A stretch of 8,827 nt of DNA, taken from the IMG/VR virus record IMGVR_UViG_2667527792_000005; one strand, given 5' to 3'. A program made the position numbers and the translations under genes. The notes beneath the pieces were generated by a model. The model was not told the origin of the DNA. It worked only from the letters and a program-made list of their open reading frames with translations, and ran no database searches. Positions 1-7,412 of the stretch are shown piece after piece (position 1 is the first letter of the stretch; each line of letters starts with the position of its first letter). Source of the DNA: a virus (taxonomy: Duplodnaviria > Heunggongvirae > Uroviricota > Caudoviricetes).

Positions 1-101
1 ATACTTTGCTGCATCCGCGTTGATCCCTGATGCAGGGTGTTCCACCACTCCACGGAGTAATGAATAATCGGCAGATTCACCACGCCAATCAGCACCAGGG
101 T
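1..101 (-). pseudogene. ccmC: Internal shard of a ccmC-like gene (cytochrome c heme exporter CcmC); runs off the window start and is cut at ~99-104
   Basis: Minus-strand translation [32 protein letters not shown] matches the C-terminal WWNTLHQ region of E. coli CcmC as I recall it. Immediately 5' of this (plus >101) the translation becomes [26 protein letters not shown], which does not match CcmC, with in-frame stops beyond. Confidence 0.55.
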
Positions 102-212
102 CGCGCCAATGACCTCGCCGGTCTTAACAATTTGCACATTCCCGTCGCTCATCAAGTTTTTCGCATCAGATCCCATGATTTATTCCTTTGCTGCATCTGT
201 GTGCCTTTATTG

Positions 213-2069
213 CTACCTAAGTGTAAAGGCTACGGAGGATTTATCCACGACAGATTTGAGATGGTGGCAAACAACTCTGTTTACTATGTCTTCTACGATT
301 ACGGGATCTGCGACTTCGCCAGTTTCATCACTGCAATCGCGATGCGGATCGCTGCCAGCATTCTCATTGTGCGGATGTTCAGCGCCTTCCATTTCCTCCG
401 GATCATTTTCCTTAGCTTCAACCTGACTCTCTTCATCGAATGTTTCCTGGTATGTTGCGTCGCCCATCACCGCACCACAGTCAGGGCAGTTATCCCCGCC
501 AGTCTGGCCGCAGGCATTGCAGGCTATTTCCGGTTCCTGTTGCACTACTGGCTCAGGTTGATTCATATCTGGGCTGGTTTTTTCCGTTTCTGGCTGGTTC
601 TGGTACACACAATCGCGAGTCTGGATCCCCTTTACCCATTTCGGATCGTTCGGGTCGCTAATTCCGTCAACAAATTCACCACGTGATGCAGCAAGCAATT
701 TATCGGCATCGACAGGATTTTTTGATGGAATGTTTTTCCGGGCTTCATGGAGTTCTGCCCGCAGTTCCTGATATTTCGCATCAACAGAATTTACCTGTGA
801 CTGAGCATCCAGCGGCTGCGTGTCCTGATGATGTTCAGTTGCGTCCGGTTCCATTGTTTCAGCCTCTCCCTGTTCAACTGCCGTTGTTCCAGATGGTTGC
901 GGTTTTTCTTCATCATCCTGTTTTCCTTCTTCTGTTACTCGCTGCGGCATCGGGGCAGAGGAGCGACCGCAGGCAATATCCACGATTTCCGGATCAGGGT
1001 TGGCATGATCGGTTTCAGTCAGTACTTTGTTCAGATATTCAGTGACGTGCGCGGGGATGACCTCGATCCCAATTGGTGCTTCTTTTACGGACGCAACCAC
1101 GATGGCGCGGGAATAATCCAGCCCGCCAGGCATGGTGATGAATTTGTCGCGGAAAACAGAAAAGGGCGGTTTATTTTCAGCGATAATTTCCTCAATGCGT
1201 TTAGCGTGTGCCGGATGAAGGTTATAGATGTCCAGATCCATTGAACGGGCCAGTACGCCAGTGGCTACGTCGCGCGCCAGTGACGTCAGATCGTGTACGA
1301 AACCTTCGCCGCGATCGGTGAGGTTTCCGCCGCCAGCATTAGCACCGGAAGCCGTGCAAGTGATGTGTGAAACACGATTACCCTTCATCCACTCTTTTGT
1401 CAGCAGTCCTCGATCGGTGTAGTCAGCGTTCAGGTATGCTTCGAAAAAAGCAGTTATCAGTCCCAGGTTTGAATTACCAGGATTAGGGAAAACTTTGTCA
1501 GTGTCACGAACCAGTTTGTGGAGTTCGCGAATTTCCAGCGGGTCGAGCAGGCTGGTTTTGTGGGAAACAGCCAGGGCAGTAACAGCCGGTAGTTCTTCAG
1601 CCCGAGCAATGTGTAATGCCTGGAGTCCGTCGCGTGAAACGTGCGTTACCGGTTTTTCGCTGCCGTGTTGAGCAAGCCAACGAATGGGCAGTTCCTGGCC
1701 AGAAATTGGGAGTAGCATATTCTCCTCAATCTCAGTCATGTCTTCGCCGTTGACGTTGGTATTGCCTTGATAGTGAGCGTTGTCTGGTGCTGCTCCCGGT
1801 TTTAGTTCCCATGTCATGGAGTCTTTGCTGAGTTGATAGCGTTCACTCCAGGTAAAATCGATCTCACCTTCAGCGGGCAGGTCATTAACGACAGGAAAAT
1901 TCGTGGCAACAGCTTTAAAATAGCTGCTCAGTTTTTTACCTGACTTAACGATCAGGTAGTCCAGAGTGGCACAGGTCGATTCAAAATCGTTGCTTGCCCA
2001 CAGGACGACGTCAGGTTCACCGGATGATTTTTTCGCTTTCCGTAACAGGAAGAGTGGTTTTGTGCTCAT
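213..2069 (-). CDS. recE: recE 5' portion: Rac-prophage exodeoxyribonuclease VIII N-terminal region. ORF is 618 codons versus 866 aa for the K-12 protein as I recall it; the C-terminal nuclease domain is absent. Similarity to RecE appears to end near plus 285; the last ~23 codons ([23 protein letters not shown]) look foreign
   Basis: Six-frame track ORF; N-terminus [30 protein letters not shown]... recognised as RecE; sits directly downstream of racC-ydaE-kilR in the known Rac order; acidic low-complexity middle and a [16 protein letters not shown]ys4 motif. Downstream in the same frame are stops at 213-215, 207-209 and 180-182. Confidence 0.8.
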
Positions 2070-2142
2070 TGTTTTTTAACCTCAACTCAGATTAAAATTC
2101 GTTTTGTTCAGTGAATGATCTTGCCGGATACACACTGTTCAT

Positions 2143-2163
2143 AGCCTGCGCCATACGCAGGCT
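2143..2163 (-). promoter_or_regulatory. Perfect 8-bp-stem hairpin (agcctgcg-ccata-cgcaggct) in the racC-recE intergenic region; not followed by a U-tract on the minus transcript
   Basis: Inverted repeat read directly from the sequence at 2143-2150 and 2156-2163, lying between the racC stop (2171) and the recE start (2069). Confidence 0.4.
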
Positions 2164-2170
2164 ATTTCTT

Positions 2171-2446
2171 TCAGATTTCACCTTTTAATTTCATTGCAAT
2201 TAGAGTTGCCAGAAATTCGGCTTTTTTTTCTGCGGGCAGATTCTTTCCGATATGCACCAGGCACATTTTTTTGACACCTTCATCAAGTGTTTTTACGTTG
2301 CCTGATGGACCATCGATATCAACCACAGTGAATGGGGTTTCTTTATTTTCTGTTTTAATTACGTAGCCAATGCGCTTTCCTTCCAGATTCACCTCGTGAA
2401 CAATGTCATCGGTAGTTACAACAGTGGCTTCATAATTGGTAATCAT
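2171..2446 (-). CDS. racC: RacC, Rac prophage small protein (91 aa)
   Basis: Translation MITNYEATVVTTDDIVHEVNLEGKRIGYVIKTENKETPF...MKLKGEI, 91 aa, matches RacC as recalled. Start chosen at the ATG preceded by AAGGAG with 6-nt spacing (plus 2444-2446), not the longer track ORF starting at 2494. Confidence 0.8.
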   Translation of the reverse strand: MITNYEATVVTTDDIVHEVNLEGKRIGYVIKTENKETPFTVVDIDGPSGNVKTLDEGVKKMCLVHIGKNLPAEKKAEFLATLIAMKLKGEI

Positions 2447-2520
2447 GTTTTTCTCCTTAATTAAGGTTGAGCGAATACCTGCCATTTCTGGCATAAATTC
2501 AGTTTCGAATAGTCAATTAA

Positions 2521-2691
2521 TTAAAGTTCATGTGCCATCTGGTCTTTTTCGGCACAAGCTTCACTGCAATATTTTCTCGGTTCGTCTTTTGATAAAATCC
2601 CGTGCATGAAGTGAAGCATTCTTTCAATAGCTTTGCTTTCTTCAACGTCTTTTTTGCAAAGGTGGTAAGCACATTTTATTTTCTTAGTCAT
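2521..2691 (-). CDS. ydaE: YdaE, Rac prophage small Cys-rich (zinc-binding-like) protein, 56 aa
   Basis: Minus-strand translation [56 protein letters not shown] (56 aa). Its ATG (2689-2691) overlaps the kilR stop (2691-2693) by 1 nt. Missed by the >=60-aa ORF track. Confidence 0.75.
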   Translation of the reverse strand: MTKKIKCAYHLCKKDVEESKAIERMLHFMHGILSKDEPRKYCSEACAEKDQMAHEL

Positions 2692-2912
2692 CACCATGAC
2701 TCCGCCTTTACAGGTAAACCATCACGACCGAGGAAGACTTTAATCATGCGGTCAGTAATGAATGTTTTTGTGGTCAGGTTACGAATATATAGTTTTCGCT
2801 TTTTAATATTGTTTGCCGAGGCAATATATGTCCGGCCTTCATGAAGAACATAATCGCCAGGAGTCACACACTGACGTGGTATTTCATCAGTTCCGAAGTG
2901 ATGTGCAATCAT
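2691..2912 (-). CDS. kilR: KilR, Rac prophage killing protein (cell-division/FtsZ inhibitor), 73 aa
   Basis: Translation [73 protein letters not shown]. Start at the second ATG (2910-2912), which has GGAG 8 nt upstream; the track ORF starts 4 codons earlier. Confidence 0.85.
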
Positions 2913-3353
2913 AATTATCTCCATTTTTACAAATGAACTTTGTTGATGCGGTGTCTGGTGCCTCCAGGTGACTGCAACCAGTTAACAATTACAGTCGGCT
3001 TTCCCACCCAAACCAATAAGGACTAACATGACTTTTAACTGTGCCACGTGCGCTTAGCCGCATTCACCGCATCACAAAATTCACTTTAAAAAGGGCGGAC
3101 ATCAGCCGAACTTCAAGAAAAAAACTGATGCCGCCAGGACTACACACAGCAATGTCGTTATTTACAACCGGAGGCGCACTCCCTCCATTTAAATTTAACA
3201 GACAAGACCGACTCTTTATGGATATCGGAAATGCGCCTTCGTGTTGTGCCCGGTTTTATTTCACCACCTCCGGGCTTCGGTGGTCTCGGCTATACCCCTA
3301 CAGCGAGAGCTTGTGTTAACATTTCAATACCCTTACAGTTGAGAGTTATTGAT

Positions 3354-3842
3354 ATGTTGGATGTATTTACTCCATTGTTGAAACTTTTTGCTAACGAGCC
3401 ACTCGAAAGACTTATGTATACGATTATCATTTTTGGTCTCACTCTCTGGCTGATACCGAAAGAGTTTACTGTCGCATTCAATGCTTATACTGAAATACCT
3501 TGGCTCTTTCAGATTATCGTTTTTGCCTTTTCTTTCGTGGTCGCCATTTCCTTCTCAAGATTGCGAGCACATATTCAAAAGCATTATTCATTACTACCAG
3601 AGCAACGAGTATTGCTTCGTTTATCTGAGAAAGAAATCGCTGTATTTAAAGATTTCCTTAAAACAGGAAATCTTATTATCACTTCTCCTTGCCGTAACCC
3701 GGTTATGAAAAAATTAGAACGGAAGGGCATCATTCAACATCAGAGTGATAGCGCAAACTGTTCTTATTATCTCGTCACCGAAAAATACTCCCATTTTATG
3801 AAGTTATTCTGGAACAGCAGGAGTAGACGTTTTAATCGTTAG
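3354..3842 (+). CDS. sieB: SieB, superinfection exclusion protein B (Rac prophage), 162 aa, two predicted transmembrane helices
   Basis: Translation MLDVFTPLLKLFANEPLERLMYTIIIFGLTLWLIPKEF...FWNSRSRRFNR. Start at ATG 3354 with GAGAG upstream; the track's 203-aa version (3231) is an unsupported N-terminal extension. Confidence 0.85.
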   Translation: MLDVFTPLLKLFANEPLERLMYTIIIFGLTLWLIPKEFTVAFNAYTEIPWLFQIIVFAFSFVVAISFSRLRAHIQKHYSLLPEQRVLLRLSEKEIAVFKDFLKTGNLIITSPCRNPVMKKLERKGIIQHQSDSANCSYYLVTEKYSHFMKLFWNSRSRRFNR

Positions 3843-3994
3843 CTTACTGTGTGCTTCTCCAACCATCGGCGCGCACCAGTTTCGGTTTTAAATGTTTTGC
3901 TTTTGGTATACGTCATGGCAGTGAACGTTCCATCCTGGTTGGGGAACACGCCGCACACCAGGGATTCGTTGTTGCCGAGGTCGATTTTTTGCAT
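3839..3994 (-). CDS. ydaF: YdaF, Rac prophage small protein, 51 aa
   Basis: Minus-strand translation MQKIDLGNNESLVCGVFPNQDGTFTAMTYTKSKTFKTETGARRWLEKHTVS. Convergent 4-bp overlap with the sieB stop. Below the track size cutoff. Confidence 0.7.
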   Translation of the reverse strand: MQKIDLGNNESLVCGVFPNQDGTFTAMTYTKSKTFKTETGARRWLEKHTVS

Positions 3995-4004
3995 TTTGCG
4001 AATC

Positions 4005-4139
4005 TCACATCTTGTTGCTACGTATAGCGACTTCTGCCTGCCAGAGATCCCAGTCGTTGCTGCGTAAAGCCTGCACAGCCTGGTTGTAAGTGATACCGCA
4101 ACAATCCATCAAATACTGAACTACTTCGTAATGCACCAT
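4005..4139 (-). CDS. ydaG: YdaG, Rac prophage small protein, 44 aa
   Basis: Minus-strand translation MVHYEVVQYLMDCCGITYNQAVQALRSNDWDLWQAEVAIRSNKM, preceded by AGGGGAGAG 5 nt upstream. It is the 3' end of the track ORF 4005..4361, whose upstream part is read-through across N's. Confidence 0.7.
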   Translation of the reverse strand: MVHYEVVQYLMDCCGITYNQAVQALRSNDWDLWQAEVAIRSNKM

Positions 4140-4152
4140 CTTATCTCTCCCC

Positions 4153-4201
4153 TTAACGCCGGGTGGCGGAACTAACTGCTGCACTGCAAAATTTGAATCC
4201 C
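4153..4201 (-). pseudogene. racR: Possible 3' tip of racR (Rac repressor), cut by NN at 4202-4203
   Basis: Minus-strand frame ends ...GFKFCSAAVSSATRR-stop immediately upstream of the ydaG RBS. Identity inferred from Rac gene order only; the sequence is not recognised from memory. Confidence 0.25.
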
Positions 4202-4203
4202 NN
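4202..4203. other. Two ambiguous bases (NN) at the breakpoint between the Rac block and an unrelated shard
   Basis: Literal n characters; the sequence context changes completely across them. Confidence 0.9.
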
Positions 4204-4285
4204 CGCGTCGGAGAGGTAATTTTTGCCGGTTTCGCCGTCGCTGAGCGCCAGTTGCCACTCATCGCCCGCCGGGTAAAGACCAAGG
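4204..4285 (-). other. Unassigned 82-bp coding-like shard (minus frame LGLYPAGDEWQLALSDGETGKNYLSDA)
   Basis: Open minus-strand frame with protein-like composition, but no start or stop inside the shard; bounded by NN on one side and the garR shard on the other. Confidence 0.3.
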
Positions 4286-4458
4286 TGAGCGGCGGTGAAC
4301 CGAAAGCCATCGACGGTACGCTGTCAGTGATGGTGGGCGGCGACAAGGCTATTTTCGACAAATACTATGATTTGATGAAAGCGATGGCGGGTTCCGTGGT
4401 GCATACCGGGGAAATCGGTGCAGGTAACGTCACCAAACTGGCAAATCAGGTCATTGTT
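4286..4458 (+). pseudogene. garR: Internal shard of garR (tartronate semialdehyde reductase, 3-hydroxyisobutyrate dehydrogenase family), ~57 codons
   Basis: Translation VSGGEPKAIDGTLSVMVGGDKAIFDKYYDLMKAMAGSVVHTGEIGAGNVTKLANQVIV matches GarR, not GlxR. The conserved DAP preceding VSGG is absent in all frames upstream, so the 5' breakpoint is at ~4285/4286; the 3' end is at N 4459. Confidence 0.7.
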
Positions 4459-4459
4459 N

Positions 4460-4594
4460 AAGACGTTGTTCCAGTGTTTTAATACTATGGCTAATGGCGG
4501 ACGAGGATAAGCCTAATTCATCGCCCGCTGCACGAAAGCTTTGATTACGGGCCACGGCAAAGAAAGTGGCAAAGTCAGACATATTCATCCGCAT
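4460..4594 (-). pseudogene. ycaN: 5' end (45 codons, HTH domain) of the LysR-family regulator ycaN, truncated at N 4459
   Basis: Minus-strand translation MRMNMSDFATFFAVARNQSFRAAGDELGLSSSAISHSIKTLEQRL is a typical LysR N-terminal helix-turn-helix; divergent from ycaK as in K-12. Confidence 0.75.
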
Positions 4595-4617
4595 TAGTGA
4601 AAATCCTTCATTAACTC

Positions 4618-4643
4618 ATCCTGAATCATCACGTTTACAGGAT
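4618..4643. promoter_or_regulatory. Inverted repeat ATCCTG-N14-CAGGAT in the ycaN/ycaK divergent intergenic region; candidate LysR-type binding site
   Basis: Arms read directly at 4618-4623 and 4638-4643; located in the 99-bp divergent promoter region between a LysR regulator and its neighbour. Confidence 0.35.
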
Positions 4644-4693
4644 TATGCCGCCTGCGTAAAGTGCGCTCCAGAACTTAACGTGGAGGTAAAATT

Positions 4694-5284
4694 ATGCAGT
4701 CTGAACGTATTTATTTGGTATGGGCCCATCCTCGTCATGATTCATTGACCGCACATATTGCTGATGCGATCCATCAGCGGGCAATGGAGCGGAAAATACA
4801 GGTGACGGAACTCGATTTATATCGGCGTAATTTCAACCCGGTGATGACGTCGGAAGATGAACCAGACTGGAAGAATATGGATAAACGTTATTCTCCAGAG
4901 GTTCATCAGCTTTATTCAGAGCTGCTTGAGCATGACACGTTAGTGGTGGTTTTTCCTCTCTGGTGGTACAGCTTCCCGGCAATGCTAAAAGGATATATTG
5001 ACAGAGTATGGAATAATGGGCTGGCTTATGGAGATGGGCACAAATTACCATTCAATAAAGTTCGTTGGGTGGCGCTGGTTGGAGGAGACAAAGAATCATT
5101 TGTCCAGATAGGCTGGGAAAAAAATATAAGCGATTATTTAAAAAATATGTGCAGTTATCTTGGTATTGAAGATGCCGATGTCACTTTCTTGTGTAATACA
5201 GTGGTATTCGATGGGGAAGAACTTCACGCGAGCTATTATCAGTCGTTATTATCTCAGGTACGGGATATGGTAGATGCACTATAA
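4694..5284 (+). CDS. ycaK: YcaK, flavodoxin-like NAD(P)H:quinone oxidoreductase family protein, 196 aa
   Basis: Track ORF; GGAGG 8 nt upstream of the ATG; translation MQSERIYLVWAHPRHDSLTAHIADAIHQRAMERK...; neighbour of pflA as in K-12. Confidence 0.9.
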   Translation: MQSERIYLVWAHPRHDSLTAHIADAIHQRAMERKIQVTELDLYRRNFNPVMTSEDEPDWKNMDKRYSPEVHQLYSELLEHDTLVVVFPLWWYSFPAMLKGYIDRVWNNGLAYGDGHKLPFNKVRWVALVGGDKESFVQIGWEKNISDYLKNMCSYLGIEDADVTFLCNTVVFDGEELHASYYQSLLSQVRDMVDAL

Positions 5285-5323
5285 GATGTGTTAAAAACGC
5301 TGTAGCAGAATGAAGTGCGGAAT

Positions 5324-5357
5324 AAAAAAGCGGCAACTCAATAAAGTTGCCGCTTTA
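5324..5357. terminator. Bidirectional rho-independent terminator between convergent ycaK and pflA
   Basis: aaaaaa-GCGGCAACT-caataa-AGTTGCCGC-ttt: 9-bp perfect stem with an A-tract on one side and a T-tract on the other. Confidence 0.75.
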
Positions 5358-5365
5358 CGGGGAAA

Positions 5366-6106
5366 TTAGAACATTACCTTATGACCGTACTGCTCAAGAA
5401 TGCCTTTCACGCGTTCCATGGTCTCTTTCTTAGGTGGTTTAACACCGTCGAGTTTGTACTCTTCACCCATTGCCACCCATTTGTGTTTGCCCAGCTCGTG
5501 GTAGGGGAGGAGTTCGATTTTCTCAACGTTGCCCATATCACGGGTAAATTCACCGAGGCGATGCGCTGAATCGTCATCGTCAGACCAGCCTGGGACAACA
5601 ACGTAGCGGATCCACACCTTCACATTTTTGTTCGCCAGATATTTGGCGAACTCCAGCGTGCGGTGGTTGGAAACTCCAACCAGATTTTGGTGGATCTCGT
5701 CGTTCATCTGTTTGAGATCGAGCATTACCAGGTCGGTTACTTCCAGCAGTTCATCAATCACCGGATCGTAACGACGAACAAAACCGTTGGTGTCCAGACA
5801 GGTATGAATGCCTTCTTTTTTGCAGGCGCGGAACCAGTCACGAACAAACTCAGCTTGTAGGATTGCCTCACCGCCGGATGCGGTAACGCCGCCGCCGGAA
5901 GCGTTCATAAAGTGGCGATAGGTCACCACCTCTTTCATTAAATCTTCAACGGTAACTTCTTTACCGCCATGCGTATCCCAGGTGTCGCGGTTATGACAAT
6001 ACAGGCAGCGCATCAGGCAGCCCTGGAAAAAGGTGATAAAGCGAATACCTGGGCCGTCTACGGTTCCACAGGATTCAAAGGAGTGAATGCGACCAATAAC
6101 TGACAT
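5366..6106 (-). CDS. pflA: PflA, pyruvate formate-lyase activating enzyme (radical SAM), 246 aa
   Basis: Translation [41 protein letters not shown]... with the CxxxCxxC radical-SAM motif. Start at ATG 6104-6106 (GGAGAAA upstream), 9 codons inside the track's longer ORF. Confidence 0.95.
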
Positions 6107-6229
6107 TGCGGTGTTTCTCCAGATGTGGCCCATCTGAGGCCGTGTTGGTGCGCAGCTCGAAGGCTACGTCGAGTCTGTTTTGGCAGTCACCTTAAAGTAT
6201 AGATAGCTGACAAAAAAGGCTCTCGTGCT

Positions 6230-6258
6230 AAAAAAGGCCCCACTTTCGTGGAGCCTTT
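6230..6258 (-). terminator. Candidate rho-independent terminator downstream of pflB (minus transcript GGCUCCAC-gaaa-GUGGGGCC then U-run)
   Basis: 8-bp stem with one G-U pair followed by six T on the transcribed strand, ~40 nt after the pflB stop. Confidence 0.6.
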
Positions 6259-6297
6259 ATTGTACGCTTTTTACTGTACGATTTCAGTCAAATCTAA

Positions 6298-7357
6298 TTA
6301 CATAGATTGAGTGAAGGTACGAGTAATAACGTCCTGCTGCTGTTCTTTAGTCAGCGAGTTGAAACGTACTGCGTAGCCAGATACACGGATGGTCAGCTGC
6401 GGATATTTTTCCGGGTTTTCCATCGCGTCGAGCAGCATTTCACGGTTCATCACGTTAACGTTCAGGTGCTGACCACCTTCGATGGATGCTTCGTGGTGGA
6501 AGTAACCATCCATCAGACCAGCCAGGTTGGTCTTACGAACTTCGTCGTCTTTACCCAGTGCGTTCGGAACGATAGAGAAGGTGTAGGAGATACCATCTTT
6601 AGCGTAAGCAAACGGCAGTTTAGCAACGGAAGTCAGAGACGCTACAGCACCTTTCTGGTCACGACCGTGCATCGGGTTAGCACCCGGTCCGAACGGCGCG
6701 CCAGCACGACGACCGTCTGGGGTGTTACCAGTTTTCTTACCATACACAACGTTAGAAGTGATGGTCAGAACAGACTGAGTCGGGATAGCGTCACGGTAGG
6801 TGTGCAGTTTCTGAATTTTCTTCATGAAACGTTCTACCAGGTCAACAGCCAGGTCATCTACACGCGGATCATTGTTACCAAACTGCGGGTATTCGCCTTC
6901 GATTTCGAAGTCGATAGCCAGACCGTCTTCGTCACGAATCGGTTTAACTTTCGCATATTTGATTGCAGACAGGGAGTCAGCAGCAACGGACAGACCAGCG
7001 ATACCACACGCCATGGTGCGGATAACGTCACGGTCGTGCAGCGCCATCAGAGAGGCTTCGTAGCTGTACTTGTCGTGCATGTAGTGGATGATGTTCAGTG
7101 CAGTGATGTACTGTTTAGCCAGCCAGTCCATGAAGTGATCCATGCGCTCCATCACTTCATCATAGTTCAGGACATCGCCTTTGATCGGTTCAGACTTCGG
7201 ACCAACCTGCATTTTCAGTTTTTCGTCAACGCCGCCGTTGATTGCGTACAGCATGGTTTTCGCCAGGTTTGCACGCGCACCGAAGAACTGCATTTGTTTA
7301 CCAACGATCATCGGGCTTACGCAGCAAGCAATAGCGTAGTCATCGTTGTTGAAGTCC
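6298..7357 (-). CDS. pflB: pflB 3' portion: C-terminal 353 codons of pyruvate formate-lyase, truncated at N 7358
   Basis: Translation ...[31 protein letters not shown]...[29 protein letters not shown] includes the Cys-Cys active site and the glycyl-radical RVSGYAV motif (Gly codon at 6376-6378). The open frame continues right up to the N, after which unrelated sequence follows. Confidence 0.93.
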
Positions 7358-7358
7358 N
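7358..7358. other. Ambiguous base (N) at the breakpoint between pflB and unrelated sequence
   Basis: Literal n; pflB frame is intact to 7357, then the context changes. Confidence 0.9.
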
Positions 7359-7412
7359 GAGGATTTTGTTATTGAAATTCTTTGCGCCACCAATGCTCTC
7401 TTTGTATCCCGC

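Follow-up and report, generated by a model that had tools for sequence, protein, structure and literature searches.

A truncated recE gene and its neighbouring gene fragments on a draft Escherichia coli contig as the probable product of chimeric assembly

The stretch of DNA analysed here (8,827 bp; hereafter, the window) carries near its start a recE gene of the Rac prophage that is much shorter than its K-12 counterpart, and the question that it raises is whether a natural recE allele has lost its nuclease domain at a breakpoint or whether the breakpoint belongs to the record rather than to the bacterium. By an exact-protein match, the window proved to be the entire contig CDRT01000476.1 (no. 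476) of draft assembly GCA_001373215.1. The truncated recE and the sequence next to it are real in this record, and are most likely the result of faulty assembly, not a recE allele that exists in nature.

recE and its neighbours at the start of the window

The first 2,069 positions contain the following features, all on the minus strand:

1..99, minus strand: piece from within ccmC, with codons 162-193 complete, the final base of codon 161 and 2 nt of codon 194, cut off by the contig end
100..176, minus strand: 77 nt from the 5' end of ydhQ, amounting to 25 codons and 2 nt, with its ATG at 174-176, assigned by locus identity
177..283, minus strand: part of the spacer upstream of ydhQ (107 of 307 nt), with AAGGA at 184-188 in the ribosome-binding region
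213..2069, minus strand: recE open reading frame of 618 codons, with its start at 2069 and a TAG stop at 213-215
284..2069, minus strand: recE through codon 595, with 1 nt of codon 596, assigned by identity to K-12 RecE

The initial annotation had contrasted the 618 codons of this reading frame with the 866 amino acids of K-12 RecE (b1350), and both lengths hold, the latter as read from the K-12 Rac locus. In BLASTP, the product matches residues 1-595 of K-12 RecE with 593 of 595 identities and has no match beyond, and in the DNA, identity to Rac starts exactly at window base 284, which is recE nucleotide 1786 and the first base of codon 596. Past codon 595 the frame continues for another 23 codons foreign to recE (216-283) before it stops at 213-215, the first of three in-frame stops that had been counted in this interval and that lie at 213-215, 207-209 and 180-182.

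K-12 RecE carries two Pfam domains, Exonuc_VIII (residues 2-178) and the PD-(D/E)XK-like PF12684 (residues 615-850). The former (PF06630) is present in the window reading frame at residues 2-178 (E = 2.8e-98), whereas the same Pfam search, which finds PF12684 in K-12 RecE, did not find it in the window reading frame. The sole solved structure of RecE, PDB 3H4R, spans residues 605-866, and because the window match stops at residue 595 the whole PD-(D/E)XK nuclease domain is absent, bearing out the earlier proposal that recE is cut at a breakpoint with loss of its C-terminal exonuclease domain. Judged by sequence, then, the recE piece belongs to the RecE family through its N-terminal region but lacks the nuclease domain that defines the family. 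The two substitutions relative to K-12, R238C (window 1356-1358) and D455A (window 705-707), are ordinary allelic variation; the DNA at 284-4201 is 100% identical to the Rac prophages of many wild strains.

Over residues 1-595, and in the succession of racC, ydaE, kilR, sieB and ydaF, the window resembles the K-12 Rac prophage. It departs from K-12 in that spacer sequence from upstream of ydhQ, translated outside its context, takes the place of RecE residues 596-866, and in that recT, the next gene past the 3' end of recE in K-12, is missing. Deletions of the sbcA type in K-12 Rac, which change the expression of recE, lose sequence upstream of recE or the 5' part of recE and keep the active 3' nuclease domain. 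The window shares with them a breakpoint in this part of Rac (within recE here, within or adjoining recE in the sbcA deletions), but it is the 3' nuclease part that recE loses in the window, so that no recombination-proficient product would be possible.

The sequence on the other side of the breakpoint had been described as the last ~23 codons of the reading frame plus some 180 bp (102-284) that match nothing. It is indeed foreign to recE, but it can be assigned: the stretch, whose limits are corrected to 100-283, consists of the 5' end of ydhQ and its upstream spacer and is identical at 184 of 184 positions to a locus that occurs in thousands of E. coli genomes, which led us to reject novel or foreign DNA as its source. 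In strain 504838, the 307-nt spacer sits between ydhQ and a tRNA-Val gene, and it is this spacer through which the recE frame reads, giving rise to the 23 foreign codons and the stop. The ATG at 174-176 had been dismissed as a spurious gene start; this view has to be abandoned, as the ATG is the genuine annotated start codon of ydhQ (locus position 3077, equivalent to window position 176), translation from it gives 26 residues identical to the start of YdhQ, and the gene is cut after 25 codons plus 2 nt.

The CcmC peptide reported at the very start of the window is likewise present, at 1-99 and not 1-101. These 99 nt are 100% identical to K-12 NC_000913.3 positions 2295740-2295838, inside ccmC (b2199), and encode residues 162-193 of the 245 in CcmC, with a weak match to Pfam Cytochrom_C_asm that reaches the end of the profile. 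Both shards are thus perfect copies of chromosomal genes, ydhQ (AIDA-repeat autotransporter-like) with its start codon, ribosome-binding site and 107 nt of spacer intact, and ccmC (cytochrome c maturation protein C) as an internal piece; unlike the intact genes, they hold just 25 of 418 and 32 of 245 codons, and neither could yield a functional protein. The join between ydhQ and ccmC is in frame, which happens by chance one time in three and was given no weight. On the plus strand, a reading frame of 218 codons (30-686) runs antisense to recE across both joins and is almost certainly spurious.

Identity to CcmC and to RecE is lost between positions 99 and 100 and between positions 283 and 284 (written here as 99/100 and 283/284), close to where the initial annotation had placed the changes. 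When parent loci were aligned to the window, the joins at 99/100 (ccmC to ydhQ) and 283/284 (ydhQ spacer to recE) were both blunt, with zero shared bases, and the pieces kept 99.9-100% identity to their parents up to a sharp boundary, so they are not chance matches. These alignments revealed no IS end, att site, direct repeat or microhomology at either join, and signatures of IS elements or integrases are absent, the parents at these points being unique coding or spacer sequence with nothing duplicated. The annotated surroundings of the parent loci (ydhQ, tRNA-Val, the ccm genes) contain no mobile element, and neither join carries an N.

We also considered whether base 284 might be a repeat boundary, and hence a natural place for a contig to stop, by setting K-12 recE against two paralogous recE genes of prophages and against a Rac-like phage of 97% identity. 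The comparisons did not support this: DNA homology to the paralogous genes is confined to window 305-705, at ~78%, a level too low for such a boundary and on the side of base 284 that the contig keeps.

Ten pieces and nine joins along the contig

The reading of positions 1-290 on their own had correctly picked out two discontinuities; seven further joins, several of them marked by Ns, lay outside its view, and the chimera was missed. In full, the contig consists of ten pieces and nine joins, bringing together nine dispersed chromosomal loci and one segment of an enterotoxin (LT) plasmid. Beyond the ccmC and ydhQ shards, it is made up as follows:

284..4201: Rac block with recE', racC, ydaE, kilR, sieB, ydaF and a small phage reading frame, in K-12 gene order
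4202-4203: NN, between the Rac block and malF
4204-4283: malF shard
4284-4457: garR shard
about 4458-7360: ycaN'-ycaK-pflA-'pflB block, with N at 4459 and at 7358
7361-7412: yqeI shard
7413-7610: otsA shard
7611-8720: LT plasmid segment with an IS91-like transposase remnant, the elt upstream region and eltA nucleotides 1-693 of 777
8721-8723: N-A-N, between eltA and ileS
8724-8827: ileS shard

Apart from the 52-nt yqeI shard, the pieces are ~99.5-100% identical to ordinary E. coli loci; the Rac block, for example, is identical to K-12 at 3915 of 3918 positions and 100% identical to many wild strains, among them 504838 and ATCC 43896. Eight of the nine joins cut through genes, and neighbouring pieces share 0-2 nt per join. 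The parent loci are separated by hundreds of kilobases to megabases: in strain E2865, ileS lies at 0.025, ydhQ at 2.27, otsA at 2.60, yqeI at 3.86 and garR at 4.18 Mb, and in strain 504838, ydhQ lies at 0.31, recE at 0.65 and malF at 2.57 Mb, while the elt piece is plasmid-borne.

In size the pieces form two classes, shards of 52-198 bp and blocks of 1.1-3.9 kb, and their layout is regular: a pair of shards precedes a block, and this pattern occurs three times. Between the blocks the inserts measure 256 bp and 250 bp, and the insert at the contig end 283 bp, all of about the scale of a single read. Together, this short-short-long layout and the roughly read-sized inserts may hint at how the chimera arose.

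The yqeI shard is an uncommon allele, being at least 99% identical in 20 of 3,679 matching genomes and ~92% identical in most, and it could point to the lineage of the isolate.

All six Ns of the contig (4202, 4203, 4459, 7358, 8721 and 8723) cluster at four joins, none of them more than 3 nt away, an arrangement with a chance probability of ~3e-9 that did not arise in any of 2,000,000 random placements. At three of these four joins, an N stands where the two parents differ and a called base where they agree: GCCG and AACG give NNCG, GGA and TGA give NGA, and TATC and AAGC give NANC. The fourth (4457-4459) fits imperfectly, position 4458 being called T where an N would be expected. Such Ns at points of disagreement are the output of a program that overlaps two sequence ends, and are unlike anything in a DNA molecule. 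The other five joins (99/100, 283/284, 4283/4284, 7412/7413 and 7610/7611) are free of Ns.

The plasmid segment at 7611-8720 is 99.6-99.7% identical to the LT plasmids of H10407, B7A and E275a, and the isolate is probably an LT-positive ETEC. eltA is represented by nucleotides 1-693 at window 8028-8720 and is cut at the N-marked join to the ileS shard, so that its last 28 codons and all of eltB are missing; this shortened toxin gene deserves the same doubt as the shortened recE.

The upstream end of the same segment coincides with a position at which other assemblies break. A reading frame of 34 codons (7607-7711) abutting the join at 7610/7611 corresponds to the N-terminus of the IS91-family transposase remnant upstream of elt, and the same 34 residues occur at the extreme contig end in at least nine independent assemblies, in surroundings that differ from one to the next (colicin, pap, type IV secretion, ospC, ermC). 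Window 7611-7791 (181 bp, comprising the transposase N-terminus and its 5' flank) is shared with those contigs at 97-99%, and they stop at one common base, 1 nt from the join at 7610/7611 and 102 nt into the IS91-family transposase gene. This common end recurs across assemblers and k-mer sizes, and in light of it the elt block looks like an ordinary assembly unit to which unrelated sequence has been attached. An inverted repeat or palindrome was considered as the cause of the recurrent end and found to be unsupported, with only weak inverted repeats of 10-13 nt in its vicinity.

Occurrence of the joins in other genomes

None of 5,426 complete E. coli genomes covers at least 80% of window 1-300 or 1-700, and no record in the phage and plasmid collections spans either interval at that coverage. 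The 40-mers across 99/100 and 283/284 are absent from 185,579 species-representative genomes, and the one across the recE join (263-302) is absent from metagenome contigs too. Among ~15 billion proteins, the exact 618-residue product is recorded on one contig alone, and its cluster holds 6,555 RecE sequences of which the others are 866 amino acids long or marked as partials at contig ends. We thus encountered in these collections no Rac-like prophage, phage or plasmid in which recE continues colinearly through 100-283, and no other recE of this kind; a naturally shorter recE allele or Rac variant was rejected on the grounds that no spanning match exists among the complete E. coli genomes, the phages and the plasmids.

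The shards themselves are internal pieces of single-copy core genes, including the essential ileS. They occur singly in essentially all of the 5,426 genomes, and extra copies are essentially never seen there. Every one of the 5,417 genomes with the malF piece has exactly one copy of it, and the ileS piece occurs 5,428 times in the 5,426 complete genomes.

Origin of the contig and what it means

We consider it very probable that assembly or scaffolding produced this contig as a chimera in a draft genome of an enterotoxigenic-type E. coli, and that 1-290 contains two of its nine artificial joins. All nine joins connect loci that are not adjacent in reference genomes, with no signature of mobile elements or recombination, and four of them (the two within 1-290 not included) bear the Ns that software leaves behind; this context of nine joins, together with the Ns, argues for an assembly chimera and against a biological truncation of recE. 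Unrelated short sequences and long blocks would have been glued together during or after assembly, possibly by scaffolding, overlap-merging or gap-closing, possibly through chimeric library reads that stayed attached to the ends of contigs, and possibly by the two routes combined. The isolate itself would then most likely carry normal, full-length recE, ydhQ and ccmC in their usual places, and the 618-codon "RecE" and the YdhQ'-'CcmC fusion would be accidents of reading frame at the joins, not expressed proteins.

As in other mis-joined contigs of draft short-read assemblies, unrelated loci meet bluntly, shards lie between long blocks, Ns sit on joins, the arrangement is limited to a single record, and one block end (7611) matches a break position of other assemblies. 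The window differs from a pure graph misassembly in that five of the nine joins, both of those in 1-290 included, have neither an N nor an overlap. Assemblers based on de Bruijn graphs cannot make joins of zero overlap unless reads span them, and the zero-overlap joins therefore imply either real chimeric molecules in the library or a joining step outside the graph.

The former of these leads to a wet-lab version of events, in which the joins were physical but existed only in the library, as blunt-ligated fragments whose chimeric reads were kept as low-coverage tails at contig ends. We regard this, which would still make the joins an artefact, as possible, although clearly less likely than the chimeric-assembly reading as a whole. 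It agrees with the N-free joins, which are perfectly blunt and share zero bases as ligation would have it, and for which a graph assembler would need spanning reads, as well as with the position of the chimeric tails at the ends of long blocks and their length of about 250-283 bp, the scale of a single read. The Ns where parents disagree are left unexplained by ligation, however, and a random ligation point should not fall 1 nt from a recurrent contig end; three-part chimeras within single reads would, moreover, require an unusually bad library. This account overlaps with the chimeric-assembly explanation that we prefer, and the two are separable only by the reads.

That the mosaic is a genuine rearrangement, with Rac cut in recE, a 184-bp ydhQ fragment and a ccmC fragment inserted through end-joining or illegitimate recombination, and a real nuclease-less RecE(1-595) allele as the outcome, seems to us very improbable. 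The sequence is a deposited record, the cut at codon 595 lies just ahead of the nuclease domain (605-866), and both joins in 1-290 are free of Ns, all of which would suit such an event. Against it, nine independent illegitimate joins would have had to accumulate within 8.8 kb, drawing on core chromosomal genes as well as a plasmid and proceeding without microhomology, an IS element or an att site, and the genome would have to contain either duplicated core-gene shards of 52-198 bp, unseen in 5,426 genomes, or disrupted copies of ileS, pflB and others; four joins carry Ns, and the arrangement is limited to one draft contig. The boldest form of this reading, and one to which we attach equally little credence, takes the mosaic for a real molecule of the isolate, in which core-gene shards of 50-200 bp and kilobase blocks were stitched by microhomology-independent end-joining after massive breakage ("chromothripsis-like"), with RecE(1-595) and a YdhQ'-'CcmC product driven by the ydhQ promoter. 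If its joins were real, they would reveal a process of fragment stitching new to E. coli, and the evidence is strongly against it. We give slightly less credence still to a deliberate construct or clone, such as a concatemer insert of E. coli fragments ligated in vitro and sequenced alongside the strain: blunt joins, unrelated fragments in random orientation and the mixture of chromosomal and plasmid pieces are what this would produce, but inspection revealed no vector, linker, adaptor or restriction site at any join, the joins occur in no plasmid record, every piece is wild-type E. coli sequence, and the Ns at joins indicate a computational merge.

The contig serves mainly as a caution: taken at face value by a gene caller or a reader, it would put on record a RecE short of a domain, a fusion of YdhQ with CcmC, an incomplete enterotoxin A subunit and elt at a chromosomal site, none of which is likely to be real. 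Its signature, consisting of many blunt joins between dispersed single-copy loci, Ns on the joins and confinement to a single draft contig, can serve as a filter for others of its kind.
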